From NCBI RefSeq assembly GCF_000012805.1, contig NC_007484.1, positions 780,001-812,000 of the forward strand: 32,000 bases of DNA, written 5' to 3'. Position numbers and translations under genes: made by a program. The DNA is from Nitrosococcus oceani ATCC 19707 (lineage in GTDB: Bacteria > Pseudomonadota > Gammaproteobacteria > Nitrosococcales > Nitrosococcaceae). Of the stretch, positions 18 through 26,378 are shown one piece after another (within the stretch, counting starts at the first letter, position 1; the number at the start of each line of letters is the position of its first letter). The notes under the pieces were generated by a model. The model saw only the letters and a program-made list of their open reading frames with translations. It made no database searches and was not told the origin of the DNA.

Positions 18-1685
18 GTGAGCACCGTGAATTGGCAAAAAGCGATAAAGGATAAAAGAATCATCGAGATTGATGGCCAGGATATAGCGGAAGGACCTCT
101 TCCTCCTTGGCGGCCGCTTGCCGTTTTTTGTCTCTATCGCTTGTTAATTGTCTCCTTGCTTTTGGTGGCCGTCATTACTGGTGCTGGCCCCGGTTTTCTG
201 GGCGAATCTCACCCTAATCTATTCTTGATTACTAGTCTGGTTTATGCCGCCGCCGCCATTGCCCTAGGTGTTGCCACGATAGCTCGGATGGGCGGATTTT
301 GCTTTCAAGTGTGGTTCCAGTTAACCTTGGATATTGGCGCTATTACGCTTTTGATGCATGCCAGTGGCGGTGTGCTCAGCGGCCTGGGAATGCTGCTGGT
401 GGTAGTGATTGCCGCCGGGGGTATTTTAACGGTGGGGCGGACCGCTAGCGCCTTTGCTGCCCTGGCCACATTGGCGGTGTTGCTTGAACAGTCTCATGCT
501 CTCGTATTCCGTGATTTCGATACCGTTCACTATACTCAGGCGGGTTTATTAGGCGCCACCCTATTTGCCACGGCTCTACTAGCCCAGGTGCTGACAGCGC
601 GGATTCGAGAGAGTGAGGCCCTCGCGGCCCAGCGGAGCTTGGATCTGGCAAATATCAGCCAGCTCAATGGGTACATTATCCAGCACCTACAGTCTGGAGT
701 CCTTGTGATAGATAGGGAGGATACCCTGCGGCTCATTAATCAGGCTGGGCGAGCACTATTAGGGTTGAAGCCGGGAGGAGAAAAAAAATCGTTGGACCGG
801 ATAGCCCCATGCCTGGCTAAACAGCTTAATTGCTGGCGAGAAGGACTACGCTCTCATCAGCCTGAAGCTTTCCGGTCACGTTGGGGACAATCCGAGATAT
901 TGTCTAAATTCATCAGCCTGGGGCCCCGCTCAGGCACACTGATTTTTTTAGAGGACGCTTCGGCTTCGGCTCGCCAAGCTCAGCAATTGAAGCTAGCTTC
1001 CTTAGGACGGCTTACAGCGAGCATTGCCCATGAAATCCGTAATCCTCTGGGCGCCATCAGTCATGCCAGTCAACTTCTAAGAGAATCTTCCACCCTAAGT
1101 CAAAGTGAGCAGCGGCTGTTGGAAATTATTCTTAATCACTGCACCGGGGTAAACGGGATCGTTAAGAATGTCTTGCAGTTGAGCCGCCGGCAGCAGCATA
1201 GCCGTCTAAAAGTGTTAGCCCTCAAGCCATGGTTGCTGGATTTTCTGGATGAATTTTGCCGTACCCAAGGAATTGACCGGACAGAGGTGGCGCTCCAAAT
1301 TCGCTCCGGCACAGTTCAAGTTCATATGGACCCTTCTCAGTTTCACCAGATATTGTGGAATCTTTGCGATAACGCTCGGCGTCATTCCCGAAGCTTGGGC
1401 CGTATTCCTTGTTTTCAAATTTCAGTAGAGAGCGCAGTGGATATGGGCCAAGTCTTTTTGGAGGTCCTGGATAGGGGATCCGGTATTCCCAACGATATAG
1501 CCGATAAAATATTCGAGCCCTTTTTCACAACCCAAGGCACAGGTACCGGGCTAGGTCTTTATTTGGCCCGCGAACTATCGGAATGTAATGGTGCCAGTCT
1601 GGAGTATCGTCCAGCGCCTGGCGGAGGAAGCTGTTTTCGGCTTTGCTTTGCCCCCCTGGGCATGATGGGGGCGAATGTGGCATGA
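18..1685 (+). CDS. pilS: PilS-like membrane sensor histidine kinase
   Basis: 555-aa ORF with about six hydrophobic N-terminal helices. H-box 'SIAHEIRNPLGAISHASQLL', N-box 'WNLCDNARRH', G-boxes 'LDRGSGIP' and 'GTGTGLGLYLA'. The stop overlaps the next start (ATGA at 1682-1685). The GTG start at 18 is provisional because the frame stays open to the window edge. Confidence 0.8.
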   Translation: MSTVNWQKAIKDKRIIEIDGQDIAEGPLPPWRPLAVFCLYRLLIVSLLLVAVITGAGPGFLGESHPNLFLITSLVYAAAAIALGVATIARMGGFCFQVWFQLTLDIGAITLLMHASGGVLSGLGMLLVVVIAAGGILTVGRTASAFAALATLAVLLEQSHALVFRDFDTVHYTQAGLLGATLFATALLAQVLTARIRESEALAAQRSLDLANISQLNGYIIQHLQSGVLVIDREDTLRLINQAGRALLGLKPGGEKKSLDRIAPCLAKQLNCWREGLRSHQPEAFRSRWGQSEILSKFISLGPRSGTLIFLEDASASARQAQQLKLASLGRLTASIAHEIRNPLGAISHASQLLRESSTLSQSEQRLLEIILNHCTGVNGIVKNVLQLSRRQQHSRLKVLALKPWLLDFLDEFCRTQGIDRTEVALQIRSGTVQVHMDPSQFHQILWNLCDNARRHSRSLGRIPCFQISVESAVDMGQVFLEVLDRGSGIPNDIADKIFEPFFTTQGTGTGLGLYLARELSECNGASLEYRPAPGGGSCFRLCFAPLGMMGANVA

Positions 1686-3016
1686 AGGGACGCCCCGTGG
1701 TCCTTATAGTGGACGATGAGCCGGATATTCTGGAATTACTGGAGCTTACCCTGGCGCCCTTGGGTGTTGTCTGCCAAAAAGCGAGTGATCTTGCCAGGGC
1801 CCGTCAGCATCTGCAGCAACAGTCCTTCGATTTCTGTTTGACTGATATGCGTCTTCCGGATGGAGATGGCATCGAGCTGGTTAGGCTGATTAGTCAGTAC
1901 TGCCCGGAAACGCCAGTGGCGGTGATTACCGCCCATGGCAACGTGGAGACTGCCGTTGCGGCCTTGAAAGCTGGCGCTTTTGATTTTATCTCAAAACCGG
2001 TGGATTTACAGGCGCTGCGCAATCTGGTCAAGAGGGCGCTAAAACTTCCTCTTTCCTATCCCAAAATGGAAAGGCGAACCCGCCACCGGTTACTTGGGGA
2101 GTCGGCCGCCATGCGGGGAGTGCGCGCCCAAATTGCCAAGCTGGCCCGTAGTCAAGCGCCGGTTTACATTAGTGGCGAATCGGGCACGGGTAAGGAACTA
2201 GTTGCTAGGCTTATCCATGAGCAAGGGCCCCGTTCGGCGGGTTCCTTCGTACCTGTCAATTGCGGCGCTATACCCACCGAGCTGATGGAAAGTGAATTTT
2301 TTGGTCATAAAAAGGGCAGTTTTAGTGGCGCTGTTGGTGATCAGGAGGGGTTGTTTCACGCCGCGGATGGGGGCACCCTGTTTTTGGATGAAGTGGCCGA
2401 TTTATCTCTCCCCATGCAGGTCAAGCTTCTGCGGGCTATCCAGGAGAAGAGCGTGCGGCCCATCGGCAGCCAGAAAGAAATTGCCGTTGATGTCCGTATT
2501 CTTTGTGCTACCCATAAAGATCTGGCTACCTTGGTGCGACAAGGCAACTTTCGCCAGGATCTTTTCTACCGGCTCAATGTTATTGAATTGGCTGTTCCTT
2601 CCTTGAGACAGCGGACAAGTGATATTTTCCAGCTAGCCGGACACATCTTGAACAGGCTCGCCGAGACCCATGGGGATACTCCTTTTAAACTGGCGCCCGA
2701 TGCTTTGGCAGCGTTGCAAGCTTATCTCTTTCCCGGCAATGTGCGAGAGCTGGAAAATATTTTGGAGCGGGCCGTAACACTATGCGAATCCGAAACCATT
2801 GGGGCAAAGGATCTGCGCTTGCCCCAAGTAGAATTGCCTAGTACCTCAGCATTCCTTCCTGCAAATTCTTTAGAAGAGCATTTAGCGGGATTAGAAAAAC
2901 AGGCTATTCTCCAAGCTCTCGAACAAACCCGCTACAATAAAACCGCTGCTGCTAAAATTCTAGGCATTACCTTCCGCGCCTTACGTTACCGGTTAAAAAA
3001 ACTGGAGCTAGAATAA
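1682..3016 (+). CDS. pilR: PilR-like sigma-54-dependent response regulator (NtrC-family enhancer-binding protein)
   Basis: Receiver domain 'VLIVDDEPDI...CLTDMRLPDGDG...KAGAFDF'. AAA+ Walker A 'GESGTGKE', sigma-54 contact loop 'GSFSGA' (GAFTGA variant), Walker B 'LFLDEV'. C-terminal Fis-type HTH 'AAKILGITFRALRYRLKKL'. I chose the ATG at 1682 (MKGRPVV...) over ORF-track 1643 because of the ATGA coupling to pilS. Confidence 0.85.
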   Translation: MKGRPVVLIVDDEPDILELLELTLAPLGVVCQKASDLARARQHLQQQSFDFCLTDMRLPDGDGIELVRLISQYCPETPVAVITAHGNVETAVAALKAGAFDFISKPVDLQALRNLVKRALKLPLSYPKMERRTRHRLLGESAAMRGVRAQIAKLARSQAPVYISGESGTGKELVARLIHEQGPRSAGSFVPVNCGAIPTELMESEFFGHKKGSFSGAVGDQEGLFHAADGGTLFLDEVADLSLPMQVKLLRAIQEKSVRPIGSQKEIAVDVRILCATHKDLATLVRQGNFRQDLFYRLNVIELAVPSLRQRTSDIFQLAGHILNRLAETHGDTPFKLAPDALAALQAYLFPGNVRELENILERAVTLCESETIGAKDLRLPQVELPSTSAFLPANSLEEHLAGLEKQAILQALEQTRYNKTAAAKILGITFRALRYRLKKLELE

Positions 3017-3478
3017 GCTAGTTGTTGGGAGCGTTCAGAACCCAAGCGTTTGCCGTTTGGGGCGTTCGGCCTAAAAGGGAAAAAATCCCTAAACAAAACT
3101 TGATCCGGCAATAAGCCCCAGGCAGCAGCCATGGGACTTAAATCACTCCCCGAACTTTTGACTTGTTAGTAATCCCCCCCCTGCCTTCCTTCAATTGGCA
3201 CCACTGTGCCGTGGGTTTTAAACAAGTGGAGATACCACTTGAGAACAACAGCTTAACCTCAAGGCATCAAAATATGAGCGAACTATGTGTAGAGAAGTTT
3301 ACAGGGGGGGTATTCTTCTAAGCGTTTGAAGGATGGGATATTTAGGGTATTTTTTAGCCGAGGAGGGGAGAAGTGTTACATAGCTGAAACAAGGAAGGGA
3401 GAGGGGGAAGGTGTTGGCGGCGTGTTCCCGGGGGATGGGGGCAAGCTATTGTGTGATATGTCAGTGACTTAGCGCCTT

Positions 3479-3494
3479 TGGCATGAACTTAGCA
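3479..3494 (+). promoter_or_regulatory. candidate sigma-54 (-24/-12) promoter
   Basis: TGGCAT-gaact-TAGCA. GG (3480-3481) and GC (3492-3493) have the canonical 12-nt register of TGGCAC-N5-TTGCW, with two mismatches to the consensus. It lies ~150 nt upstream of ATG 3643 and directly downstream of a sigma-54 activator gene. Confidence 0.5.
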
Positions 3495-3642
3495 GAGGGT
3501 AGGTCAGACAGGGGATGTCAAGGAGAGCGCCATGGGATACCCGGTAACAAGACGCCTATGAAAATGAGGGCGTGGCCAGGGTCCACAGAGCGCAGGGAGG
3601 CGCGCCTACAAGATGATACTGAATGCTAAGGAGCACACATTG

Positions 3643-4791
3643 ATGAAACACACCACAGTCATGATGAGCGCGGTTGTGGCCGCCTCCCTGTTAAGCACCT
3701 CCGCCCTGGCCCTGGACCGGGCCAACACCTCCGAGAAAGGCAGCTTATTGGTTTTCCCGAATGTGGATGTGAGCGGGGATAAGAATACCATTATTCGCCT
3801 CCAGAATGATTACTCCGACTCGGTGAGCCTGAAGTGCTACTGGAAGAACGGGACCAAGTTTTTCACCGACTTTCAAATTGAGCTGACCAAGTTCCAACCC
3901 ATCTGGATAAGCGCCCGGGATGGTGAGGGGACCTACAGCGTCCCCCCCTTTCCCACCTCCACCAACCAGGACTACCTGGATAAGATAGGTCTCGGTGGCG
4001 GTGAATATGCCACCCCCAGCCGGGTGACGTTGCCCGAGCATGCCCGGACCGCAGGTGAGCTGCAATGCTGGGCGGTGGATGGCGGGGGTGCCAGTGAAAT
4101 TCGCTGGAACCATCTGGCCGGCTCCGCCACGGTGGTGGACGCCTCCCAAGGGACGGCCTATCAATACAACGCCTGGGGTTTTCGCTGCCTGGTCGGGGGC
4201 AATGGGGATGCGTGCGTGGTGGCCGATGCGGGTCAACTGGACCTCAATGGCAACGAATACGAAGCCTGCCCGAAGAAGCTCATCGGCCATTTCAGCCCCG
4301 CCGAGACCGCTCTTGGGGGCATGCAGGTGCATCGCAATGAGCTGACCCTGGCCTCCTGTAATCAGGACCTGACCCAGGACCAGCAGTTCCACTTCACCAA
4401 GCTGAAGTTTAATGTCTGGAACGAGCAGGAAGCCAAATACACGGGGGCCTATCAGTGCATGGACAGCTGGCATCAGGGGCTGCTCGATGGGGTGCAGAAC
4501 AATGGCCGTAACTTCACCGCCTCGAGCCTCAAGACCGATGTGGCCCGCTTTAAGGTAAGGGGGATGAAGAGCAGCGTCTGTGAGCGTGCTGATAACCGCA
4601 AAACCTTCGCCATTGATGAGAGCATTGTGACCGAAGAGGCCGGGCTGCTCGGGGTCATGGCCACCACCTACGGGTTGGGGGAAAGTGATGGCCTCGCCGA
4701 GGCGGGCACTACCCTGCACATGCTCGGTCAGCGTGATGGCTTTATCGCCTACGACCCTCAAGAGGTCATTGAGGAGCGTCCCGCTCGCTAG
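3643..4791 (+). CDS. secreted Cys-rich protein of unknown family, paralog A
   Basis: AAGGAG (3628-3633) lies 9 nt before ATG 3643. Signal peptide 'MKHTTVMMSAVVAASLLSTSALA|LD'. Eight Cys are conserved with paralog B. C-terminus is '...YDPQEVIEERPAR'. No motif of a family I can name. ORF-track start 3613 rejected in favour of the RBS-backed ATG that aligns with paralog B. Confidence 0.85.
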   Translation: MKHTTVMMSAVVAASLLSTSALALDRANTSEKGSLLVFPNVDVSGDKNTIIRLQNDYSDSVSLKCYWKNGTKFFTDFQIELTKFQPIWISARDGEGTYSVPPFPTSTNQDYLDKIGLGGGEYATPSRVTLPEHARTAGELQCWAVDGGGASEIRWNHLAGSATVVDASQGTAYQYNAWGFRCLVGGNGDACVVADAGQLDLNGNEYEACPKKLIGHFSPAETALGGMQVHRNELTLASCNQDLTQDQQFHFTKLKFNVWNEQEAKYTGAYQCMDSWHQGLLDGVQNNGRNFTASSLKTDVARFKVRGMKSSVCERADNRKTFAIDESIVTEEAGLLGVMATTYGLGESDGLAEAGTTLHMLGQRDGFIAYDPQEVIEERPAR

Positions 4792-4846
4792 GGCAAGTGC
4801 TCTATTAAAATAAGATCAACACCAACAAAGAACACACCCTTTAGCA

Positions 4847-4879
4847 AGGGACCCTCCTACCAGGTGGGTCCCTTTTTTT
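4847..4879 (+). terminator. rho-independent terminator after paralog A
   Basis: Perfect 8-bp stem AGGGACCC (4847-4854) / GGGTCCCT (4866-4873) followed by a T-run to 4879. Confidence 0.8.
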
Positions 4880-5207
4880 ATGATCTTGTTTCCTAAGGCG
4901 AATCATGATAGCAGAGACGCACCAAGCGCAACGTTCAATTTATATGTTGTTTTAGCATTAAATTCGAGCTATGCTTTTTCTGGCCTCGCAGGCTAGGGTC
5001 GGGAAGGCCCGAGGTAAAGCGTATAGGGCTTGTTTACAGTTACAGGTAAACAGGCGGTAAAAACCGGAGACCAGTAATGTTCTTCACTAGAGGTTAGAGG
5101 TTGCCGGGAAACGCGAATTGATTCGCCTGCTGAGGTTTTGTGAAGAACTAAATTAAAATGAGTTGCAACAAAAAAACTCCAAAATAATACTTTAAGGAGT
5201 AAAGTTA

Positions 5208-6434
5208 ATGACAATGCGATATGCTGTAATTATGGGGACGGTAGTAGCCGCTTCTTTGTTAAGCACCTCCGCCCTAGCCCTGGATAGGGGCAACACCTCC
5301 GAGAAAGGAAGCCTACTGGTTTTCCCGAATGTGGATGTGAGTGGGGATCGGAATACTATCATCCGTATTCAGAATGATTATTCCGATTCGGTCAGCCTCA
5401 AGTGCTATTGGAAGAACGGCACCAAGTTCTTCACTGATTTTCAGATTGAACTGACCAAATTTCAACCCATCTGGATCAGCGCTAAGGATGGGAAAGGCAC
5501 TTACAATGTGCCTCCCTTTCCCACCTTCACCAATCAGGCTTATTTAGACAACATCGGGGTCGGTTACAAGGGCCCCGAAAAAAATAGCATCAATGGCGGC
5601 CCCAACCATCGTGGAGTCACGCCAAGCCAGGTGCTGTTGCCGGACAATGCCAAGACGGCAGGTGAACTGCAATGCTGGGCGGTGGATAGCTCGGGCGCCA
5701 ATGAAATTCGCTGGAATCATCTGGCCGGTTCAGCCACCGTCGTGGACACCTCCCATGGCACCGCTTATGAATATAGTGCCTGGGGGTTCCGTTGCCTGGT
5801 CGGGGGTAATGGAGATGAGTGCGTGACTGCCGATGCTGGCAAGCTGGATCTGGATGGGACTGAATACGAAGCCTGCCCGAAGAAGCTCATCGGTCAGTTT
5901 AGCCCTGCTGGCGCTTCTGTCGGCGACGTTCAAGTTCGCCATAATGAGCTGACCATTGCCTCCTGTAATCAGGATCTGACCCAGGACCAGCAGTTCCACT
6001 TCACCAAGCTGAAATTTAATGTCTGGAACGAGCAGGAAGTGAAGCTTACCGGTGCTTACCAATGCATCGATAGCTGGCATCAGCTGTTGCTTAGCGATGT
6101 TCAGAACAATGGCCGTAATTTCAGTGCTTTTGGCACCAATGTGGCCCGCTTCAAAGTGAAAGGCATGAAGAGCAGCGTCTGTGAGCGCCCGGATGCACCA
6201 AGAACCGCTTTTGTCGATGAGAGTATCACCACCGAAGATGCGGGGATCGTAGGGGTATTGTCTACTACCTACGGGTTTGGTGGAGGCATCATCATCCCTG
6301 TTGAGGATGGGGATAATGGCAATGGCTCAAGCGGCGTAGCTGAGGCGGGTTCTACCCTCCACATGCTAGGCCAACGGACCGGCTTTATTTCCTATGATCC
6401 AGCAGAGGAGATTGAGGAGCGTCCTTCTCGCTAA
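5208..6434 (+). CDS. secreted Cys-rich protein of unknown family, paralog B
   Basis: AAGGAG sits 8 nt upstream of ATG 5208. Signal peptide 'MTMRYAVIMGTVVAASLLSTSALA|LD'. Collinear with paralog A along its whole length (roughly four-fifths identical by eye). Same eight Cys and same '...YDP.E.IEERP.R' end. Two insertions relative to A. Confidence 0.85.
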   Translation: MTMRYAVIMGTVVAASLLSTSALALDRGNTSEKGSLLVFPNVDVSGDRNTIIRIQNDYSDSVSLKCYWKNGTKFFTDFQIELTKFQPIWISAKDGKGTYNVPPFPTFTNQAYLDNIGVGYKGPEKNSINGGPNHRGVTPSQVLLPDNAKTAGELQCWAVDSSGANEIRWNHLAGSATVVDTSHGTAYEYSAWGFRCLVGGNGDECVTADAGKLDLDGTEYEACPKKLIGQFSPAGASVGDVQVRHNELTIASCNQDLTQDQQFHFTKLKFNVWNEQEVKLTGAYQCIDSWHQLLLSDVQNNGRNFSAFGTNVARFKVKGMKSSVCERPDAPRTAFVDESITTEDAGIVGVLSTTYGFGGGIIIPVEDGDNGNGSSGVAEAGSTLHMLGQRTGFISYDPAEEIEERPSR

Positions 6435-6486
6435 ACTTCAGTGTCAAGTAAAATTAAAACTAACTGAAGAATTTAAAATTTGGGAA

Positions 6487-6515
6487 GGGCAAGGCTTCAG
6501 TCTTGCCCTTTTTTT
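6487..6515 (+). terminator. rho-independent terminator after paralog B
   Basis: 7-bp stem GGGCAAG (6487-6493) / CTTGCCC (6502-6508), 8-nt loop, T7 run 6509-6515. Confidence 0.8.
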
Positions 6516-6752: not shown

Positions 6753-7544
6753 ATGCAGCAACGGTACAATTCTTTCGTTTTGCTTTTTTGCTTATCCTTT
6801 ATGGGACTGGGGTTTGCCCAAGACCAGGGAGAAGAAGCCGCCCTTAAGGACCGGGCCAGCGTTTTCTGGAAGGCACGAGTTCAGGAAGACTGGGCCACGG
6901 TCTATAATTTTTTACCCTCCGAGACGAGAAGTAAAACGGCCAAGGAGCAGTTTGTCGCCTTTCGGCAAAAGAAGGGGCCTTTTCGGTATTTATCCTCCGA
7001 GATAGGCAAAGTGGCGGTAGCTGGGGACAAAGGTTGGGTAGAGCTGCACTATACCGCTCAACCTTACAATTATCCAGAAATATCGCCGGATCGGATAGAG
7101 ATGTGGGAGCCTTGGCAAATTCGGGAGAAGCAATGGTATCCCGTTCCCCCTCAGTTACGGGAGCAGATGCCCAAGCTACCTCCCCATTTGCGGCCTGCGG
7201 AAGAAGAGGCTGCCCTTTCCCGGCGGGCGGATGAATTCTGGAAAGCCAAGGAAGCCCAAAATTGGGATCTTATTTACCGTTTTTTAGAGCCGAGCTATCG
7301 CGCCGAGGTTTCTAAAGCCGAATTTTTAAGCAAACAATCCCTGTTTGTCTATGTTACCCATCGCTTTGAGTGGGTAGAAGTCAGGGGCAACCAGGGCCGG
7401 GTCAACGTAGTGTATTCCCGGAAGTTAAATGATCCCACGTTATACAAATTACAACCCGAGGAGGACAGTATGATTGCAGAATGGGTCAAGGTGGATGGGG
7501 TGTGGTACCGGCATGTCGAGCTGCCGAGTGGGGGAGAATCATGA
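6753..7544 (+). CDS. secreted protein with two tandem ~115-aa repeats, unknown function
   Basis: Signal peptide 'MQQRYNSFVLLFCLSFMGLGFA|QD'. The two halves align ('EEAALKDRASVFWKARVQEDWATVYNFL' vs 'EEAALSRRADEFWKAKEAQNWDLIYRFL'). The stop overlaps the next start (ATGA at 7541-7544). Confidence 0.75.
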   Translation: MQQRYNSFVLLFCLSFMGLGFAQDQGEEAALKDRASVFWKARVQEDWATVYNFLPSETRSKTAKEQFVAFRQKKGPFRYLSSEIGKVAVAGDKGWVELHYTAQPYNYPEISPDRIEMWEPWQIREKQWYPVPPQLREQMPKLPPHLRPAEEEAALSRRADEFWKAKEAQNWDLIYRFLEPSYRAEVSKAEFLSKQSLFVYVTHRFEWVEVRGNQGRVNVVYSRKLNDPTLYKLQPEEDSMIAEWVKVDGVWYRHVELPSGGES

Positions 7545-8884
7545 AGCTGTGGCAAGTATTGAGTGGAAGCATGGGTATGGTCATGGCTGCTCTGGTTTTT
7601 GCCGAAGAAGGACCATTGCCCTCTTCTCCGGAGTCTCCTCTGCTCAGTTATCAGCTGGCGGTAGAGGGGTTGCCCCCCAGGGCTCCCCTCCCTATCTGGA
7701 AAAGTACCCCGGTCATAGTTGATAGCAATGGGGATGGTTTCTTAGACCTAGCCGCTATCTCCCGGGTGGGTGACGGGGCTCAGGTGTGGCTCGGGGATGG
7801 AAAGGGCCGGTGGCAAGATTCTTCCCAGGGGCTGGGTCCTGCCGATTCTTGCGGTGGGGGGGTGGCCTTTGGCGATATTAACCGGGATGGCATGCTTGAT
7901 TTGGCGGTAGCGGATCATTGTGGCGGGGTATTCGTGTATTTGGGGAACGGTAAAGGGGAGTGGACAGCCAGCACCGAAAGACTAAATCCAGCCCTGTCGC
8001 ACCAGATAAATCTGGAAGAGGAGGGGGAAAATACCCTGACCGGGGCTGAGGATTTAGCCCTGGGGGATGTTAATGAGGATGGTTTTTTAGACTTGGTAGT
8101 AGCCGCTTCCGATGAAGGCGGATTTGCAGTGTACCTAGGAGATGGCAGCGGTAAATCCTGGCAAGAAAGTGACGCCGAGGGTCTGCCTACTGTTAAGCAC
8201 CTAGGACCGGGAGCCGAGGAAAATGGCGGTTGGGCCAACCAGGTGCAGTTACTGGATATAGATGGGGATGGGCATTTAGATGTGGTGGCCAACTATTATT
8301 TAGGACCCTGGGTCTGGCGGGGTAATGGCAAAGGGCAGTGGGAGGATTCTTCGGAAGGATTGCCCCGGCCTATGATCGGAGGGCTTTTCCGCGGTCTGGC
8401 GGTGGGCGATATCAATGAAGATGGCCGTCTGGATTTGGCGGTGGCTAACAGCATCAATGGCCCCGAGGTTTTTCTGCAAACTCAGAAAGGATCGTGGCAG
8501 CGAACCCCCGATGTCATGCCCTCCATGCTCGGCGGAGCGGAAGGCATTGCCCTAGGGGATTTAGACCGGGACGGTCATCTGGATTTAGTGGTAGGGGGGC
8601 GTTTGGAAACAAAGGGAACCGGCTACGGGCTGTTTATCCTGCGGGGTGACGGCAAGGGTGGCTGGACCAAGCTTCAAGACACGAGTCTTCCCGCCTCCGG
8701 GTTGCCCTTTACCTGGGGTATCACCACGGCCGATGTGAATGGCGATCAGTGGCTGGATTTTGCCGTAGGTACCGGAGGGGCGGTGGATGGCACCAAAGAT
8801 CCTGTACGGGATGAGAGCGCCTTGCCCCAGTTACAGGTTTGGTTGCACCAAGCCCCCTCGCAAGAAGATCAGGCGAGCCAATAG
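7541..8884 (+). CDS. secreted FG-GAP/VCBS-repeat beta-propeller protein
   Basis: Signal-like N-terminus 'MKLWQVLSGSMGMVMAALVFA'. At least six Ca-binding-type FG-GAP repeats ('GDINRDGMLDLAVAD', 'GDVNEDGFLDLVVAA', 'LDIDGDGHLDVVAN', 'GDINEDGRLDLAVAN', 'GDLDRDGHLDLVVGG', 'ADVNGDQWLDFAVG'). Start moved from 7481 to 7541 because of the ATGA coupling and signal peptide. Confidence 0.8.
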   Translation: MKLWQVLSGSMGMVMAALVFAEEGPLPSSPESPLLSYQLAVEGLPPRAPLPIWKSTPVIVDSNGDGFLDLAAISRVGDGAQVWLGDGKGRWQDSSQGLGPADSCGGGVAFGDINRDGMLDLAVADHCGGVFVYLGNGKGEWTASTERLNPALSHQINLEEEGENTLTGAEDLALGDVNEDGFLDLVVAASDEGGFAVYLGDGSGKSWQESDAEGLPTVKHLGPGAEENGGWANQVQLLDIDGDGHLDVVANYYLGPWVWRGNGKGQWEDSSEGLPRPMIGGLFRGLAVGDINEDGRLDLAVANSINGPEVFLQTQKGSWQRTPDVMPSMLGGAEGIALGDLDRDGHLDLVVGGRLETKGTGYGLFILRGDGKGGWTKLQDTSLPASGLPFTWGITTADVNGDQWLDFAVGTGGAVDGTKDPVRDESALPQLQVWLHQAPSQEDQASQ

Positions 8885-8895
8885 GGCGGGAAGTT

Positions 8896-10899
8896 CTAGG
8901 ACTCAAACCCATCGGCGAAGATGATATCCGGCAAAGTGCCGGTAATAGTGAAATCGGTATCGGAGATATCGAAGAAAATATTATCCGCGCATGCCACCTT
9001 GAGGCGGGCCTGGGTGGTGGCTTTATCCGGCACGGTGATCACCGCCTTGCCATTATTGGCGGTGGTGGTAAGGATCTCGGAAAAATTATTGCCGCCGTTG
9101 ATGGACAGCAGGATATGGACCTGGGCGCAGTTCACCGGTGGGAGATCGGTATTGGTTACTTCCCAAATCACCAGCTTGGAGGTGTTGCTGGCCCAGGTGA
9201 CCGGACTGTTAGGCTCGGTCACCCTAAAAGGGCCGGCAAGGTCCGTGACCTGCAAGGTAACCTCATCATAATCCACGCCGCCGCCCCCCGCCCGATTGTC
9301 CCGGGCCGTGAACCGGAAGGTGAGATCACGGGTCTCGGCGGGTAACTGTTCTCCCACGGTAGATGTATTGTTCAGCAGATCCGAGAGCTGGGGAAAAGTC
9401 CGGGAAGGATCGCCGGTAGGGGGAAAGGAACGGAAAAGGGGCTTATTGCCATCTCTCTCTAGATCAAATTCCTCCCAATTATAGGTAAGGGGATCCCCAT
9501 CGGGATCGATGGCCTCCCCGGTAAGGGTAAAGGGGGTTTCCAGGGGAAGCGTGTAGCTTGGCCCCGCATCCACGTTGATGGGCGCCTGGTTCAAGGTGCT
9601 GATGATGGCCGGACAGCTGCTTTGGGTGGTGTAGTCCACGATTTGGTCGAAGCTGTGACCATGAAAATAAGGGTCGGTATGGGGTTGCAGGTTCTGTTCA
9701 CCACAGATGCCCGCATAGGACATGATGGTGGAACCACTGCCCGGTTCATAGGCGTCATTAGGTTTCCTACGGGTTCCGCAAAAGCCTGCGGTGCCATTAA
9801 AGGTGTGGTGAGCGCCAAATTGGTGGCCGATTTCATGGGCCACGAAATCCACATCAAAGGGATCGCCCATGGGATGAGACGATCCGGTGACCCCCTTGGC
9901 CTTATCGCCTGCTTGGCAGACCGTGGCGGGTACCGCGGCTCCGCCGCCCCCGGTACTGAACACATGGCCGATATGGTAGTTGTCGTTGCCAATCTCATTA
10001 TCCAGATTCATTTGATTTTCAGTTAGCATCGTTCTGCCGTTTTCATTGGTGTAGGGATCGGTCTGGGGATCGGTATAAATAATGGCAGGATTATCTTCCA
10101 CCAGCTGAAACCGCACCGCCACTTCCCGCTCATAGATAAAGTCAACCCGGGTAAGGGTGGTTACGATGGCAGCCATGGCCTGGGCAACCGTGCCTCCTTG
10201 GAATTGGGTATACTCGCCGGTGGCGGCGATGGCGATGCGGTAGGTGCGCAGCTCGTTGCCGGAAGATCGTAGGGCCAGGGAGGAGGGGCGAAAGTCCAGG
10301 GTGTCCGCGGGGGATTCCGTTTCCTCCACCTGACACGCCCGCTTCTTGGGTTGGGCCGGCTTGAAGTCCCGCTTGAAATAACTGCGGTAAAGTTCCGGCA
10401 GGCCATTTTGAGTCGGGGAGTCCGGGTCGATATACACCGTCCCCTCGCTGGAATGGAAAATAGCGTGGAACCCCTTGGGAGTCAGGTCAAACCGGGCCGT
10501 GCCCTGGGGATCATCCAGGCTGATGCCCCGGTAGGTTTTAATTTCGGGAAACTTGGCGGCCAGGGCCGGGGCCATGACCGGGGATTCCTCGATGAGAAAA
10601 CGCTGAAACCCCCCATTCGGCATGGGAATGGAGAGGACAATGTCCGCGCCGGGGCGCTCCTCGAAGGGCGCTTGGCCCAGAGTCCGTTCTAGGGCGGTAA
10701 TATCGACCCGCAGCAGGCGATAGTAGCTTTCGGGCGCTGCTTGGCCCCGTCGGGCGATAGCAGGGGGGGCGACATCTTCCCAAAGGGAGTCTGGGGAAGA
10801 GGCGGCTTGTCCCTCCATTGAAATGGTCATACAGGCCATGAACGCTATCATGGCCTGTGTAAGCCTAATAGGCTTTATTTTTCCAAGCAGTTTCTTCAT
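8896..10899 (-). CDS. secreted zinc metalloprotease, metzincin (reprolysin/M12B-like)
   Basis: 667 aa with N-terminal signal/hydrophobic segment 'AMIAFMACMTISMEGQAA'. Metzincin motif 'HEIGHQFGAHH' (HExxHxxGxxH) followed by a Met-turn-like 'STIMSY'. Beta-rich C-terminal domains. Confidence 0.8.
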   Translation of the reverse strand: MKKLLGKIKPIRLTQAMIAFMACMTISMEGQAASSPDSLWEDVAPPAIARRGQAAPESYYRLLRVDITALERTLGQAPFEERPGADIVLSIPMPNGGFQRFLIEESPVMAPALAAKFPEIKTYRGISLDDPQGTARFDLTPKGFHAIFHSSEGTVYIDPDSPTQNGLPELYRSYFKRDFKPAQPKKRACQVEETESPADTLDFRPSSLALRSSGNELRTYRIAIAATGEYTQFQGGTVAQAMAAIVTTLTRVDFIYEREVAVRFQLVEDNPAIIYTDPQTDPYTNENGRTMLTENQMNLDNEIGNDNYHIGHVFSTGGGGAAVPATVCQAGDKAKGVTGSSHPMGDPFDVDFVAHEIGHQFGAHHTFNGTAGFCGTRRKPNDAYEPGSGSTIMSYAGICGEQNLQPHTDPYFHGHSFDQIVDYTTQSSCPAIISTLNQAPINVDAGPSYTLPLETPFTLTGEAIDPDGDPLTYNWEEFDLERDGNKPLFRSFPPTGDPSRTFPQLSDLLNNTSTVGEQLPAETRDLTFRFTARDNRAGGGGVDYDEVTLQVTDLAGPFRVTEPNSPVTWASNTSKLVIWEVTNTDLPPVNCAQVHILLSINGGNNFSEILTTTANNGKAVITVPDKATTQARLKVACADNIFFDISDTDFTITGTLPDIIFADGFES

Positions 10900-11579: not shown

Positions 11580-12425
11580 ATGCTTTCGACTTTAACTAAT
11601 ATTATCGCCCGTCAGGATCTCCTTAAATCCTTGACCCTGAGCGAGTTGCAGTCTTCCACGGCCCAAATGCGGCTCGGCTGGTTATGGTGGCTGCTGGACC
11701 CTTTGCTGTTGATGGGGGTATATTGGGGAGTAATGGTGATCATCCTTGGCCGGGGGAATATTCGTTACGAACCCTACTGGATTTTCCTCTTCTGCGGCCT
11801 GATCGCCTGGAAGCATTTTGCGGAGAGCGCCGCCAAGGCTACCAATGTGCTCAGCGCCAAGGATCATCTTATTAAGTCGGTACCCTTTCCTACCATTATT
11901 TTGCCGATCGCCGTTGTGTTTTCGAGTTTTGGTTTTTTTTTATTCGGCATGGGGGTGCTCCTGGTTTTTGCCCTAGGCGCCGCTTTATCCGGCGCGTTAG
12001 TCCAGCATAGCGGTGATCTGCTTCCGCTGCTTCAACTCCCAGGCTTGATGGCGTTGCAGTTGCTCATTGTCACGGGGATTGCCCTGCCCCTGGCGTGCGT
12101 AGGGGCCTTGGTCCGGGATCTTTCCCCCTTTATCAACCACTTTCTTAGAATGGCCTATTACCTGTCGCCAGGGCTCTATGGTATCGACCTTATCCAGCGC
12201 CTTTTGACAGCCGAGTTCGGTTCCGAGTGGGGTAGTAAGCTATTCAACCTCTACATGCTCAATCCCTTTGCTATCCTGATTAGCGGTTACCGGGACAGTA
12301 TTTTTTATGGGGAGTTCATGCCGCTTTATTTTTGGCTCATACTTTTTCTGGAAGCCGGGATTTTACTCTTTGTGGGATATCGTATTTATCTTTATTATGA
12401 CCGCCGTGTCATCAAGTTTCTCTAG
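11580..12425 (+). CDS. wzm: ABC-2 type polysaccharide export permease (Wzm/TagG/KpsM type)
   Basis: 281 aa with about six TM helices. N-terminal 'LTLSELQSSTAQMRLGWLWWLLDPLL' resembles the ABC-2 permease signature region. Immediately followed by, and overlapping, an ABC ATPase gene. Confidence 0.75.
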   Translation: MLSTLTNIIARQDLLKSLTLSELQSSTAQMRLGWLWWLLDPLLLMGVYWGVMVIILGRGNIRYEPYWIFLFCGLIAWKHFAESAAKATNVLSAKDHLIKSVPFPTIILPIAVVFSSFGFFLFGMGVLLVFALGAALSGALVQHSGDLLPLLQLPGLMALQLLIVTGIALPLACVGALVRDLSPFINHFLRMAYYLSPGLYGIDLIQRLLTAEFGSEWGSKLFNLYMLNPFAILISGYRDSIFYGEFMPLYFWLILFLEAGILLFVGYRIYLYYDRRVIKFL

Positions 12426-13285
12426 TGAGTGAAGAATCTATAAGGCACGCTATGACTGGGGATTATCTTGCTATGACCGAGGAGGCTCGGGAGAAAGCTT
12501 CGGCACCGAGCCGACCGCGTCCCGTAAGTCCGCCCTTAATTGAGGTCCGCAACCTCAAACTCTGGTACCAACTGCAACAGCATAAACGCCGCTCGGTTAA
12601 AGAGGTTCTACTGTCTCCCCGCAAGGGATCAGCGCAGGTTCATTGGGCGTTGAATGGGGTGAGTTTCCAGTGCCATGAAGGGGAGGCGCTAGGGATCGTG
12701 GGCCACAATGGTGCGGGCAAGAGCACCTTGTGTCTGGTTTTGGCGGGCATCTTGACGCCGGATACCGGGACGGTCCAAGTTCGTGGTGAAGTGACGCCGC
12801 TGCTAAATTTTGGCGCCGGTTTTAACCGGGAGCTGACTGGTCGGACCAATGCCTATCTCTACGCCTCGTTTCTGGGCATTCCCCACCGGGTGGTGGATCG
12901 CCGTCTGGATGATATTATTGCCTTTTCGGAGCTGGGCAATTTTATCGATCAGCCCATGCGCAGTTACTCGGCAGGGATGAAGGCCCGGCTCGGTTTTTCC
13001 GTAGCCTCTATTTTGGACCCAAAAATCATGATCTTGGATGAGTCGCTGGCTCCTGGGGATTTGGCTTTTAAAGCCAAAAGCCGGACCCGGATGATGGAAA
13101 TGATTCAGCACAGCCAACTGCTGATCGTGGTTTCCCATTCTTGCGCCTTGCTGCGGCAAATTTGCACCCATTGCCTATGGTTGGACCATGGCCAGACCCG
13201 GCTGTTTGGGGAGGTCCATCAGGTGCTGGATGCTTACGAAGAAGCCATGGGAGGAGAGGAAATCCTTGATCTTGACGAACCATAA
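12425..13285 (+). CDS. wzt: polysaccharide export ABC transporter ATP-binding protein (Wzt/TagH type, no C-terminal carbohydrate-binding domain)
   Basis: Walker A 'GHNGAGKST', ABC signature 'YSAGMKARL', Walker B 'IMILDE'. The GTG start overlaps the wzm stop by 1 nt (TAGTG). At 286 aa it has an NBD plus a ~60-aa N-terminal extension only. Confidence 0.8.
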   Translation: MSEESIRHAMTGDYLAMTEEAREKASAPSRPRPVSPPLIEVRNLKLWYQLQQHKRRSVKEVLLSPRKGSAQVHWALNGVSFQCHEGEALGIVGHNGAGKSTLCLVLAGILTPDTGTVQVRGEVTPLLNFGAGFNRELTGRTNAYLYASFLGIPHRVVDRRLDDIIAFSELGNFIDQPMRSYSAGMKARLGFSVASILDPKIMILDESLAPGDLAFKAKSRTRMMEMIQHSQLLIVVSHSCALLRQICTHCLWLDHGQTRLFGEVHQVLDAYEEAMGGEEILDLDEP

Positions 13286-13300
13286 CCACACAGCAGCTTT

Positions 13301-14587
13301 ATGAATCTGGCCGCTCACGAAATCTTGGTAGATACCTATAACCTTCGGTTGCCCCAGGGCTCTGGGATTAAGACCTATGGGCTTTCCTTGCTCAATGCCT
13401 TGAGCCAGTGCCAGGCCCAGGTTTCCTTGCTGACGGATCGGTATATGCCTAAAAGCCGCTACCCGATTCTGGATGAAGTACATCTATTTGATCAGGCCAT
13501 GGACCACGCTCCTCGCCATCCCCGGCTTTGGCGGGGACTGCGGATGCTCTCCCATGCAGGTCGTACCCTGAGGGCAACGCCGGTGGATATTTCCCGGGTT
13601 ATTCCCCTGGAAGGCTTGGGCGGGACTTCTATCCATCGCTGTTATAATTCGCCTCAGCTTTATGAGATGGCCAACCAAACCTATCTGCGGTTGGGTAGAT
13701 TGACTCGGGTCAAATTTCCGCGGCCGCCTGCCCTTTGGCATGCTACTACGCCGCTGCCCATCCGTATTCGGGGTGCCCGGATGGTCACCACTGTTCATGA
13801 TTTAATTCCCTTGCGCCTGCCTTATACTACGTTGGATAACAAGCAATTTTTCTACCGGCTGGTGCGGGATGCACTGCGGGATTCGGATCTAGTGCTCACC
13901 GTTTCCGAATGCTCTAAACGGGATATTCTCGCTTTTTATGATATTCCTGAAGAGCGGGTTGTTGTGACCTATCAGTCCTTGTCCCTGAAGAAGGCCAGCA
14001 CTCATCAAAGGCAGTCTTTTTCTGTACTAAAGAGTTACGGGCTGACACCGGGCCAATATGTGCTATTCGTGGGAAATATTGAGCCTAAAAAAAATCTGGC
14101 GACTTTAATCAAGGCCATGAGCATGCTTCAGCATGATCTCCCTCTGGTAGTGGTAGGCCGAAAAGCTTGGCTCTGGGAAGAGCAACTCCAGATGGCCAAG
14201 CGCTACTTTGGCAGTAATGAAGCCAAGCGCCTGCGAATACTGGATTATGTGCCTTCCACCGTTTTAAGCACCCTTTATAGCCATGCTCTCTGCATGGCCT
14301 TCCCTTCTCTCTATGAAGGTTTCGGGCTGCCCGCCCTGGAGGCCATGAGCCATGGTTGCCCAGTCATTTCCTCCAATGCGAGCTCATTACCAGAAGTATG
14401 TGGCGAGGCTGCTCTTTATATGGACCCCCATGACTCCGATGGGCTTTATGCCCATATCGAATCGCTGTTGGAAGATGTTTGTTTAAGGGCACGTCTGATT
14501 GAAGGGGGTTACCGCCGGGTCGAGTATTTCAGCCCGGAACGTTATGCTGAGCGTCTCTCTACGGCCTATAGCCAGATCCTGGCCTGA
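13301..14587 (+). CDS. GT4-family (GT-B, group 1) glycosyltransferase
   Basis: C-terminal 'FPSLYEGFGLPALEAMSHGCPVISSNASSLPEV' is a classic EX7E-region group-1 motif. Confidence 0.8.
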   Translation: MNLAAHEILVDTYNLRLPQGSGIKTYGLSLLNALSQCQAQVSLLTDRYMPKSRYPILDEVHLFDQAMDHAPRHPRLWRGLRMLSHAGRTLRATPVDISRVIPLEGLGGTSIHRCYNSPQLYEMANQTYLRLGRLTRVKFPRPPALWHATTPLPIRIRGARMVTTVHDLIPLRLPYTTLDNKQFFYRLVRDALRDSDLVLTVSECSKRDILAFYDIPEERVVVTYQSLSLKKASTHQRQSFSVLKSYGLTPGQYVLFVGNIEPKKNLATLIKAMSMLQHDLPLVVVGRKAWLWEEQLQMAKRYFGSNEAKRLRILDYVPSTVLSTLYSHALCMAFPSLYEGFGLPALEAMSHGCPVISSNASSLPEVCGEAALYMDPHDSDGLYAHIESLLEDVCLRARLIEGGYRRVEYFSPERYAERLSTAYSQILA

Positions 14588-14615
14588 ACTTTCTAGCGAG
14601 TAGTAGGCGTTAGAG

Positions 14616-16103
14616 ATGTTACAGCCTCAAGACCGCTTGTATTTCATTCATATTCCCAAAACTGCCGGGACTACCCTGATTCCCCACCTGGATGCCCGCT
14701 TTCATGTGGATGAAATCTGTCCGGCGCAACTTTGGCCCCAGCTCTTGTTGCTTCCCCAGGAGACATTGCCCCGCTACCGCCTGTTTCGGGGACATTTTGG
14801 GGCCAAGGGACTGGATTGTTTTCTGCCGGAGCCGCCACTACGGATAACCATGCTGCGCCATCCCGTGCCCTTGGCTTTATCCACCTATCAATTTATTTTG
14901 CGGGAACCGGGCACCCATCTGCACCGTCTAGTAAAGTCCGGAAAAATGAGTTTTGCTGAGTTTTTACAGCACCCCAAAGCCCGCCTGGCGGTAACTAACA
15001 AGCAGGTGAGCAACCTGGGTTTCGAGCTGCGTTACCAACCAGGCAGGGGGCCGGCACTTTCTGCTGCCCGCGGCGCCAAGCAATGGGTGAATAGCCGCAA
15101 GGTGGTCTGCCCATCTCCGCAAGAGCGGCTTGAGGGAGCTCTTGCCGTCCTTCAGGAGTGCGTTTTTTTTGGCTTGGTGGAGCGTTTCGATGAGTCCATC
15201 GCCCTTTTGTCCTGGACCTTTGGCTGGCCTCCGGCGGGACCCGTGCAAAAATTAATGGTAGCGCCTCCGGCTTCCCGCCGGGGATCTGCCCTTTCTGCCT
15301 CCTTGGAGACGCAGATTCGCGCTTATAATCCGCTGGACCTGGCGCTCTATGAGGCGGCGGAAAAGCGATTTGAGGAGCGGCTAGCTGCCATGAGAGAGGA
15401 TTTGCAGCAATACGCAAGGGCGGGGGAGACGATGCCGGACTCCTTAATTGCTGATCCCCAGTTGCTCTATAAGTTACTGAAACGCCATTACCGATGTCAC
15501 CAGCCAAAGCAAGTCCGCCCGGCGGGCGCTTGTATTCGGATGACCTTTGCCGAGCCCTTGCCGGGAAGTGGCTGGCATCGCCGGGAGGAGGCACCCTCCG
15601 AGGGAATATTCTATCGTTGGACCGGCCCCGGCAGGGTGTCTACCCTGGCTTTCCCCTTGGGCGTTGCGGAAGATCTCGTAATAACTTTCCTGGTGCTAGA
15701 TGCGGCTTCCCGGACGATACTGGAAAGTCTGCAATTAACTGTCAACGGCCAGCCGGTGGCGCTTCGTTCCTTCGGTCGCGGTTCCCACTTCCCTCGGTAT
15801 TATCAGACTTTTGTGCCTCAGGATATTTTCTCCTCCAGAACTAGGCATATCCGGCTGGCCTTCCGGGTAGCCAAGACGGCGCATAGGGAACGCTTTTACT
15901 GGGACCCCCGCGCAGTGGGCGTCGCTATTGGCGGGGTGGAGCTCGCCCCCGCCCGGGAAGCCCCGCTGGAAGAAGTGCTTATGGCCCGGTTAAAGAAGCT
16001 CCGCCGCCCTATTTCATGGCGGCTCTGGCTGCTGCAAACCCCTTGGTTTGGCCCTCGGCTGAGAAAGTTGTATCTTTATCTGCGCGCTGTCTATTTTTCA
16101 TAG
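14616..16103 (+). CDS. sulfotransferase (family-2-like, HxPKTxGT type) with ~190-aa C-terminal extra domain
   Basis: N-terminal 5'-PSB-like 'FIHIPKTAGTT' and downstream 'ITMLRHPV'. The C-terminal part contains 'GSGWHRREE...FYRWTGP', shared with the ORF at 28135. Confidence 0.7.
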   Translation: MLQPQDRLYFIHIPKTAGTTLIPHLDARFHVDEICPAQLWPQLLLLPQETLPRYRLFRGHFGAKGLDCFLPEPPLRITMLRHPVPLALSTYQFILREPGTHLHRLVKSGKMSFAEFLQHPKARLAVTNKQVSNLGFELRYQPGRGPALSAARGAKQWVNSRKVVCPSPQERLEGALAVLQECVFFGLVERFDESIALLSWTFGWPPAGPVQKLMVAPPASRRGSALSASLETQIRAYNPLDLALYEAAEKRFEERLAAMREDLQQYARAGETMPDSLIADPQLLYKLLKRHYRCHQPKQVRPAGACIRMTFAEPLPGSGWHRREEAPSEGIFYRWTGPGRVSTLAFPLGVAEDLVITFLVLDAASRTILESLQLTVNGQPVALRSFGRGSHFPRYYQTFVPQDIFSSRTRHIRLAFRVAKTAHRERFYWDPRAVGVAIGGVELAPAREAPLEEVLMARLKKLRRPISWRLWLLQTPWFGPRLRKLYLYLRAVYFS

Positions 16104-16105
16104 CT

Positions 16106-16921: not shown

Positions 16922-16943
16922 ATTAGAACCGATGGAACGAAAA

Positions 16944-16986
16944 TAAGGTAGGGCGGGAAAGCGTGAGCACATCCCGCCCTACCTTA
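16944..16986. terminator. bidirectional terminator hairpin between convergent genes
   Basis: Perfect 15-bp inverted repeat TAAGGTAGGGCGGGA (16944-16958) / TCCCGCCCTACCTTA (16972-16986) with a 13-nt loop. It lies between the + strand stop at 16921 and the - strand stop at 17009. Confidence 0.75.
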
Positions 16987-17008
16987 TCGAATCCCAAGTT
17001 AATTGTGG

Positions 17009-17737: not shown

Positions 17738-17766
17738 CGTGATCTTTTTAACAAGAGTTGCGGAAT

Positions 17767-18804: not shown

Positions 18805-18839
18805 GCAAGCAGTCAGGGGAATTTTTTTATAATATTCTT

Positions 18840-21593: not shown

Positions 21594-21931
21594 GAAGTGG
21601 TGAATAGGCGTAAGGGGTCTACGTTGCGATTACCAGGCAAACCCATCCCCATCTTTTTCGTTGAGCGGGGTAAGCACGCTTTTTGGAGTTTTGCCATGAC
21701 GGATAGCAGTTTTGTGCCTACCTGTCTGCATGCGGACACGCACAGGCAGGCACGCTCACTGGGGGGTCATTCAACATCCAAGTTTAATTCCAAAGTATAC
21801 TGAACTTAGGGGAAGTTTTTAATCAGGGAGGTTCATTTTATTGAGAGTCTGTTCTGTAACATTAATCTTAGCTAGCTATTTTTTCTAAGGAAAATTTTAT
21901 CCTAGATATAGCTGATGAAAGAGTAATAAAA

Positions 21932-23323: not shown

Positions 23324-23336
23324 GTAGGCTTAAAGA

Positions 23337-24239: not shown

Positions 24240-24275
24240 GTTTTTTAGGTTTTTGATGCTTTGCAAACCGCCTGA

Positions 24276-25385: not shown

Positions 25386-25403
25386 ACAGGCTTGGTAGAA
25401 AAC

Positions 25404-26363: not shown

Positions 26364-26378
26364 GCGCCTATTGCCGAA

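Follow-up and report, generated by a model that had tools for sequence, protein, structure and literature searches.

In Pseudomonas aeruginosa and many other gammaproteobacteria, the sensor kinase PilS and the response regulator PilR drive the pilin gene pilA from a sigma-54 promoter (PMC6058289). We examined a 32,000 bp stretch of the Nitrosococcus oceani ATCC 19707 chromosome (NC_007484.1, positions 780,001 to 812,000; hereafter the window, numbered from its first letter) in which a pilS-pilR pair (pilSR; Noc_0722, Noc_0723) is followed by a gene for a secreted protein, Noc_0724 (gene A), and a diverged paralog, Noc_0725 (gene B), both members of what we call family X. The locus shares with the described PilS-PilR/pilA systems the same kinase and regulator family and a sigma-54 promoter at a pilA-like distance, but its downstream gene is not a pilin, it has no TGAC-N7-GTCA dyads and other sites are conserved in their place, and its promoter-gene unit is triplicated, the other loci lacking pilSR. 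We read it as three things side by side: an ordinary PilS-PilR system, a self-contained sigma-54 cassette occupying the slot of pilA, and a large uncharacterised protein family with an FG-GAP partner, where sigma-54 and an activator other than the adjacent PilR would drive a surface module. We put the probability of this reading at about 0.5.

Other described systems resemble parts of this arrangement. Control of secreted or surface proteins by PilR is known from Dichelobacter nodosus and Geobacter sulfurreducens; there, as summarised in PMC6058289, pilA is still a PilR target and PilR-type sites are present, whereas no such site was seen at our locus and the link is adjacency alone. The PEP-CTERM box regulon of PrsK, PrsR and PrsT (PMC1569441) is similar in its single-gene units with long upstream regions, in a TTTACA motif followed by a sigma-54 site, and in secreted proteins encoded near polysaccharide genes, and N. 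oceani has the system; it differs in that proteins A and B lack the sorting tail and that the spacing falls at the edge of the described range, the motif having been compared by description. NpdA, a candidate Nitrosococcus surface-layer protein (PMC10765051), is likewise a secreted candidate for a surface structure in a genus whose surface arrays have long been known, but it is unrelated to family X and its gene adjoins gsp genes, and family X is not known to be connected with any surface layer. At the structural level the only domain-level match is TM1070 of Thermotoga maritima (PDB 1nc7), a small beta-sandwich protein of unknown function, which matches one of the two sandwich domains of protein A with a template-modelling (TM) score of 0.72 normalised to the 116-residue target, but covers about one third of protein A at 6% identity.

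The pilSR pair and the slot of pilA

A database entry matches the open reading frame (ORF) at 3643-4791 exactly, and the genes around it, ABA57236-ABA57242, correspond to Noc_0722 to Noc_0728. The features of the pilSR-cassette region, all on the forward (+) strand, are these:

18..1685, +: pilS (Noc_0722), sensor histidine kinase with a six-transmembrane PilS-type domain
1682..3016, +: pilR (Noc_0723), ATG at 1682, sigma-54 enhancer-binding response regulator
3196..3211, +: weak terminator-like hairpin TGGCACCACTGTGCCG with a T-rich tail, found by pattern scan in the spacer after pilR
3279..4879, +: A cassette, a 1.6 kb repeat unit of enhancer-like blocks, sigma-54 promoter, 140-nt leader, gene A and terminator
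3287..3304, +: conserved block 1, GTGTAGAGAAGTTTACAG, about 209 nt 5' of the predicted start, candidate distal activator site
3370..3395, +: conserved block 2, GAAGTGTTACATAGCTGAAACAAGGA, about 122 nt 5' of the predicted start, candidate proximal activator site
3479..3494, +: putative sigma-54 -24/-12 element, TGGCATGAACTTAGCA, 10 of 12 consensus positions with GG-N10-GC, predicted start about 3505
3502..3524, +: conserved block 4, GGTCAGACAGGGGATGTCAAGGA, 5' end of the predicted mRNA and most conserved element of the region
3643..4791, +: gene A (Noc_0724), 382 residues, Sec signal peptide, eight cysteines, two predicted beta-sandwich domains, family X
4846..4879, +: strong intrinsic terminator 3' of gene A, stem-loop of -20.5 kcal/mol (z = -3.5)
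5208..6434, +: gene B (Noc_0725), 408 residues, 74% identical to A

By domain content and relatives, Noc_0722 and Noc_0723 are a genuine and ordinary PilS-PilR two-component system; the sequence-only reading had noted the close resemblance to PilS/PilR from the REC-AAA+-Fis architecture, the GSFSGA loop and the six-transmembrane kinase. Pfam places 6TM_PilS (PF25323, expectation value (E) 4.3e-34, residues 31-203), PAS_8, HisKA and HATPase_c in the kinase, and REC, Sigma54_activat, AAA_lid_14 and a Fis-type helix-turn-helix (HTH_8) in the regulator, which UniRef names PilR. The domain order is that of PilS, pilS lies directly 5' of pilR as one unit (stop and start overlap as ATGA at 1682-1685), and the architecture and closest relatives of the regulator are those of PilR. 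Scanning genomes at one per species gave 80 loci with a regulator 58-70% identical to Noc_0723 over full length. Pseudomonas, Stutzerimonas and Marinobacter account for many of them, and uncultured gammaproteobacteria are also represented; where the protein encoded after pilS comes from Pseudomonas or Stutzerimonas, the identity is 62-63%. Noc_0723 carries the GSFSGA form of the loop, and among the 80 relatives 63 carry GSFTGA and 16 GSFSGA (79/80 with either). A PilS homologue (E 1e-85 to 1e-151) lies directly 5' of the regulator in nearly all of them.

In about 19 of these 80 loci a canonical major pilin gene (start MKK) lies directly 3' of pilR on the same strand. Twelve of the corresponding pilA promoters were examined, and their best sigma-54 matches score 9-11 of 12 positions, lie 57-210 nt before the pilin start and mostly read TGGCAYG-N4-CTGCW. 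Because the nearest PilR relatives have pilA next, behind a sigma-54 promoter, the ancestral layout is pilS-pilR-(sigma-54)pilA. A family X gene occurs in 0 of the 80 PilR loci, and no pilin gene lies within the window, while N. oceani type IV pilus genes (FimT and PilVWXY1E, minor pilins, Noc_2270-2275) are encoded elsewhere (PMC3772326). A and B begin with a Sec-type leader, MKHTTVMMSAVVAASLLSTSALA|LD, and lack the G|FTLIE prepilin leader, as already seen in the sequence-only reading, and its impression that something else sits in the place of pilA agrees with the gene order of the relatives. The sigma-54-driven pilA is missing after pilR in Nitrosococcus, and a non-pilin cassette sits in its slot.

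Between the pilR stop and the cassette lies a 262-nt spacer (3017-3278) that is locus-specific: it aligns only with the syntenic Nitrosococcus watsonii locus and gave no alignment to the other cassette copies. A perfect 7-bp inverted repeat in this spacer (CAAGTGG-AGATA-CCACTTG, 3231-3250) is not conserved in N. watsonii.

The repeated cassette and its promoter

N. oceani has three near-identical copies of gene A (Noc_0343, Noc_0724 and Noc_0973) in addition to the diverged paralog B. The repeated unit extends from 364 nt 5' of the gene A ATG to the end of the terminator at 4879, and BLASTN aligns it over 1,602 nt at 99.1% identity with an unlinked copy in N. oceani AFC27 (L001:9636-11237). 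N. watsonii encodes an identical 383-residue protein at three loci: one syntenic with the window, one a solo copy between genes for an Mrp-type ATPase and a DUF748 protein, which is also the context of the solo AFC27 copy, and one at the head of a three-paralog tandem. The three N. watsonii cassettes (L003, L004 and L005:9632-11240) are 98-100% identical to one another over 1.6-1.8 kb, promoter included, with L003 and L005 identical over 1,777 nt. Between N. oceani and N. watsonii, by comparison, protein A is 82% identical and the upstream region has visibly diverged. Within a species, then, the copies agree at 98-100% identity, while from one species to the other they clearly differ; this pattern indicates that the three copies per genome are homogenised by gene conversion, i.e. 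that they evolve in concert. Two of the three copies in each genome lie far from pilSR. IS630-type transposase fragments flank solo copies (L001:2187-2633, L003:8563-9421), and a 1,785-nt metagenome contig, L173, resembles a collapsed assembly of the cassette repeat.

The predicted parts make the cassette a self-contained promoter-gene-terminator unit. At its 3' end none of 200 shuffled sequences was as stable as the terminator stem-loop, which is followed by a run of seven U. At its 5' end the alignment took in four lineages, namely N. oceani, N. watsonii, L173 as a third Nitrosococcus-like contig (85% protein identity) and the more distant L006 (56% protein identity). Five conserved islands stand out of otherwise diverged sequence, namely blocks 1 and 2, the -24/-12 element, block 4 and the Shine-Dalgarno region. 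The -24/-12 element is kept in every copy and in all four taxa, with L006 carrying TGGCACGAAGCTCGCA (11 of 12 positions) at the same relative position, and shows the GG-N10-GC of TGGCAC-N5-TTGCW. Searched across the window at no more than two mismatches, the sigma-54 motif gives 17 matches against 17.5 expected, i.e. chance level, so the promoter is credible because of its conservation in the four taxa and in all copies, not because of window statistics. The element had been noted in the sequence-only reading about 150 nt before the first paralog. Its sequence and spacing hold, with the qualification just given for the motif alone, and it does precede gene A; the start of A, however, is the ATG at 3643 (Shine-Dalgarno AAGGAG at 3628-3633), in agreement with database entries, and not 3613.

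Block 1 is conserved in the four lineages, and its AGAAGTTTACA occurs only once in the window when no mismatch is allowed; block 2, which holds an imperfect dyad (TGTTACA-N4-TGAAACA), is near-invariant in the same taxa and likewise unique in the window. Conserved dyads at about -122 and -209 fit an enhancer-dependent promoter. In the reading we prefer, RNA polymerase with sigma-54 would bind at 3479-3494 and be opened by an enhancer-binding protein on the dyads at 3287-3304 and 3370-3395; transcription would begin near 3505 and end at 4879, and protein A would leave the cytoplasm by the Sec pathway and act extracellularly together with the FG-GAP protein Z described below.

Block 4 is, in our reading, an element of the leader RNA. 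Its spacer is conserved, whereas the spacers of the dyads in pilA promoters vary, and it can fold into a hairpin with GGA in the loop (GACA[GGGGA]UGUC, 3507-3519), predicted in 3 of 3 leaders tested. A second predicted hairpin, UGCU[AAGG]AGCA (3624-3635), lies over the Shine-Dalgarno sequence and presents its GGA. The stems of these leader hairpins are weak (-3.7 kcal/mol, no better than shuffles). The SELEX (systematic evolution of ligands by exponential enrichment) consensus for CsrA/RsmA is RUACARGGAUGU, and the two GGA-loop hairpins resemble target sites of these proteins. No Rfam family matched in the window or the leader. A short upstream ORF starts from an ATG inside block 4 (3516-3548) and has 10 codons, against 13 in N. 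watsonii and 8 in L006; the peptides are not conserved past M-S-(R/K).

Gene B seems to be served differently, as the sequence-only reading suspected when it found no -24/-12 element before it. Region 4792-5207 contains no GG-N10-GC candidate, the terminator of A intervenes, and only the last ~110 nt upstream of B are conserved with the N. watsonii orthologue. Gene B is likely transcribed separately, behind that terminator, and a search of its upstream region yielded neither a sigma-54 nor a sigma-70 promoter.

Candidate activators of the cassette

In the pilA promoters of the PilR relatives a TGAC-N7-GTCA dyad occurs as 10 exact sites in 2,640 nt, where 0.04 would be expected (250-fold), with one or two per promoter 146-201 nt 5' of the -24 element in 6 of the 12 promoters (L014, L019, L020, L041, L044, L072). 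This makes it, on comparative grounds, a clean candidate for the PilR operator of the clade. The helix-turn-helix of the PilRs from dyad-bearing loci, LEQTRYNKTAAAKLLGISFRALRYRLKKLGLD, is nearly the same as that of the Nitrosococcus protein, ...AAAKILGITFRALRYRLKKLELE. No exact TGAC-N7-GTCA was found in the window or in ~100 kb from six related loci (~130 kb in total), nor do cassette blocks 1 and 2 have a counterpart in the relatives' pilA promoters. Genes A and B show neither PilR-type upstream sites nor a conserved adjacency of regulator and target: an adjoining pilSR is wanting at two of three copies per genome, at L006 and at all distant family X loci. In L006 the same blocks and sigma-54 promoter are present, as is the gene order of X, Y, Z, protease, ATP-binding cassette (ABC) exporter and GT4 glycosyltransferase, and the upstream neighbour is a glycine-cleavage gene rather than pilSR. 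In N. watsonii C-113 (CP002086, L004:6465-9395, syntenic with window 18-3016) a frameshift interrupts pilS near codon 466 and a stop (GAG to TAG) interrupts pilR at codon 235, just past the GSFSGA loop, and yet all three cassettes and their promoters are intact. In several N. oceani strains both pilS and pilR are intact. We conclude that the adjacent PilR is probably not the activator of the cassette and that all three copies are most likely served in trans by whatever does activate them.

The sequence-only reading had instead proposed that the PilS/PilR module appears rewired, and it is the copies elsewhere, L006, the N. watsonii lesions and the want of a PilR-type dyad that speak against this proposal. 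In its full form phosphorylated PilR would bind 5' of gene A, and in trans at the other two copies, and activate the sigma-54 promoter, so that the secreted protein takes the regulatory place of the pilin. Gene A does stand in the exact slot of pilA with a sigma-54 promoter at a similar distance, PilR is the only enhancer-binding protein adjoining any of the three copies, and the D. nodosus and Geobacter cases cited in PMC6058289 set a precedent for non-pilin surface targets. Block 4 also offers a possible site, since it includes AGACAGGGGATGTCA (3506-3520, overlapping the predicted start), whose AGAC-N7-GTCA is one mismatch from the dyad and the only such near-match in the region, and GTCT elements have been described as hallmarks of PilR sites. 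But this near-match lies at about +1 to +16, the position of a repressor and not of an enhancer, and its 7-nt spacer is conserved as in an RNA loop while the spacers of real dyads vary; as a PilR site we judged block 4 less likely than as an RNA hairpin. The conserved upstream blocks, moreover, are different dyads, not seen in pilA promoters, and exact sites are lacking from the window and the other cassette loci even though the recognition helices match those of dyad-bearing relatives. Together with L006 and the broken N. watsonii pilSR, these points make a rewired PilSR less likely than a separate activator.

A specific version of the other-activator explanation would have PrsR (Noc_1998), with its kinase PrsK (Noc_1997), bind the blocks and activate the three copies along with the PEP-CTERM genes. 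Haft et al. (2006) described the PEP-CTERM box as a motif of 17 nt with TTTACA at its end, repeated in some cases, that lies 32-92 nt 5' of a sigma-54 site. It stands before operons of one gene with long upstream regions, and occasionally before non-PEP-CTERM genes; PrsK/PrsR control it, and N. oceani is listed with the system (PMC1569441). The cassette likewise holds a single gene, a polysaccharide cluster lies beside it, block 1 contains GTGTAGAGAAGTTTACA, 17 nt ending in TTTACA, and block 2 holds the related GAAGTGTTACA. The match comes down to six bases, however, in a comparison with the verbal description of the box, and block 1 reads TTGACA in N. watsonii. Spacing is a further difficulty: block 1 lies 175 nt 5' of the sigma-54 site, and block 2, at about 97 nt (86 nt from TGAAACA), falls at or beyond the 92-nt maximum. 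Proteins A and B, finally, end in ...YDPQEVIEERPAR with no hydrophobic stretch, and so lack a PEP-CTERM tail. We therefore regard PrsR as an unlikely, if specific, candidate. It is more improbable still that the -24/-12 element is no working promoter and that the cassette is transcribed from a sigma-70-type promoter, with the blocks having other roles, for example as repressor sites or in leader RNA. Such an account would suit the chance frequency of -24/-12 matches in the window, the deviation of the -12 half, TAGCA, from TTGCA, and the distant family members, where sigma-54 sites are not enriched 5' of 60 homologues. It fits poorly with an element whose GG-N10-GC and position are constant in four taxa although the flanks diverge, with the better match (11/12) in the most distant taxon, and with dyads at about -120 and -210 that suit an enhancer-dependent architecture; in addition, no sigma-70-like site was found in 3017-3642.

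Our preference for an activator other than the adjacent PilR must be tempered by several observations that weigh against it. Noc_0724 is the only one of the three copies to adjoin an enhancer-binding protein, that protein is PilR, and with only a handful of enhancer-binding proteins per genome an adjacency by chance is unlikely. The -24 half of the cassette element, TGGCATG, resembles those of the relatives' pilA promoters, and block 4 is the one-mismatch dyad already discussed. The recognition motif was derived from relatives and not from the Nitrosococcus protein, and exact dyads occur in only half of the relatives' promoters examined. The lesions in N. watsonii could be sequencing errors or decay of a laboratory strain. 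A literature search returned no paper on Noc_0343, Noc_0723-0727 or Noc_0973, no entry in the N. oceani microarray supplement and no transcript, start-site or binding data for them, and the matrix or surface role considered below draws on gene neighbourhood and fold class only.

Family X and its probable extracellular setting

The sequence-only reading described A and B as two paralogs with eight cysteines and no motif it could place. The cysteines do occupy equivalent positions in both, and the relationship holds at the identity listed above, but A is one of three near-identical copies with B as a further paralog. Neither protein matched Pfam or NCBIfam, and a PDB profile search with the family returned nothing at E<=1, in keeping with the failure to place a motif. 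A word-indexed search, which gave 16 clusters, had suggested a small orphan family; an exhaustive profile search replaced this with 2,155 representative clusters, 777 of them below 1e-30. The paralogs thus fall into a large family, albeit an uncharacterised one, and no well-characterised family matched. Named hits are almost all 'hypothetical protein' entries from Planctomycetota/Phycisphaerae. Many members, at 600-4,000 residues, carry the domain twice in tandem, and dockerin-like C-termini (D-x-D-x-D...WG.C) occur among them. In many members the family profile is circularly permuted, positions 73-370 preceding 16-72, so that an N-terminal strand pair has moved to the C-terminus (P0046, P0047, P0061, P0067, P0072 and P0074, among others).

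An AlphaFold model of protein A built on a 76-sequence alignment has a mean predicted local distance difference test (pLDDT) of 89.6 and a predicted TM-score (pTM) of 0.88, and supersedes a first model from 16 sequences (pLDDT 64.5). It confidently predicts two beta-sandwich domains, for which Foldseek found no full-length match in PDB or BFVD (TM <= 0.26); hits to arrestin, the SID1 ectodomain and viral capsids, obtained with both models, were discarded as low-TM beta-sandwich noise. On these models family X would be a large uncharacterised family of secreted, disulfide-rich two-beta-sandwich proteins. ORFs antisense to A (3745-4761) and B (5730-6080) were dismissed as shadows of GC-rich coding sequence.

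Downstream of B lie the following neighbours:

6753..7544, +: gene Y (Noc_0726), 263 residues, secreted two-repeat protein, recurrent neighbour of X
7541..8884, +: gene Z (Noc_0727), FG-GAP/VCBS beta-propeller (FG-GAP_3, E 2e-50)
8896..10899, -: Noc_0728, reprolysin-like (M12B) secreted zinc metalloprotease, convergent with Z (Pfam Reprolysin_3/4/5)

The Y stop and Z start overlap as ATGA. Z lies directly 3' of X or of X-Y in 11 of ~16 informative metagenome contigs, and also in L002, L006 and L007, and by this measure of gene order is the most conserved genomic partner of X. Y of the window matched neither Pfam nor NCBIfam; its homologues (~265-330 residues, secreted, of no known family) stand between X and Z in L002, L004, L006, L007-12, L101, L103, L152/154 and L158. 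Tandem X arrays are common among the metagenome contigs, and no regulator was linked to X among the ~16 informative ones. The homologue of Noc_0728 occupies the same position in N. watsonii and L006. More widely, a secreted protease recurs beside X: M12B in Nitrosococcus and L006, a peptidase M14 in L007:5788-7614, and a P-domain/PPC protein in L013:3053-5164. This recurrence hints at proteolytic processing.

Further along the window, 11580-29442 encodes an ABC exporter pair, GT4 glycosyltransferases, about six sulfotransferases from three Pfam families and a sulfatase (21932-23323), a gene content that probably makes a sulfated surface polysaccharide. Within this cluster a 150-residue ORF (18324-18776) matches only the TNB domain of Cas12f1-like/TnpB proteins and is probably a fragment of a TnpB-type transposon gene. 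Beyond it, 29499-31610 encodes another FG-GAP protein, which carries an ASPIC/UnbV domain at its C-terminus (CRTAC1-like), and a protein with TPR, FG-GAP and UnbV_ASPIC domains also adjoins the distant X-Y-Z locus L002.

Because the X-Y-Z set adjoins the metalloprotease and the sulfated-polysaccharide cluster, it is most likely an extracellular matrix or cell-surface module that acts with the sulfated polysaccharide. We dropped the more particular idea that X is the surface-layer protein, NpdA having already been proposed and nothing tying X to a layer. A bolder proposal, to which we give little credence, is that X, Z and Y form an undescribed extracellular assembly system, amplified to three gene-converted, sigma-54-driven copies, which supplies a major structural protein of the envelope or the sulfated matrix, for instance of one of the regular outer wall layers seen by electron microscopy in the genus; the cassette that took the slot of pilA might then still be wired to PilS/PilR surface sensing.

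Regulon prediction can draw a caution from this locus: a gene may adjoin an enhancer-binding protein, and even stand exactly where the ancestral target of that protein stood, without this proving that the protein controls it. Were PilR control of the cassette true after all, it would join the non-pilin surface targets already known in other bacteria. More interesting than a rewired PilSR are two other results, the triplicated, gene-converted sigma-54 cassette that has displaced pilA and the large X-(Y)-Z family, which lacks annotation. Here pilA gave way to a mobile promoter-gene unit, which, with promoter and gene near-identical across three loci, provides a clean case for the study of gene conversion. 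The family itself, some 2,000 clusters common in Planctomycetota and present in marine nitrifiers, has been without annotation, solved structure or Pfam model; a confident predicted fold can now be given for it, together with an FG-GAP protein as its conserved partner and a probable role outside the cell. Nitrosococcus is an abundant ammonia oxidiser of the ocean whose surface layers and aggregates have long been known while remaining molecularly undefined, and a triplicated, probably tightly regulated secreted protein encoded beside a sulfated-polysaccharide cluster is a concrete candidate component of them.

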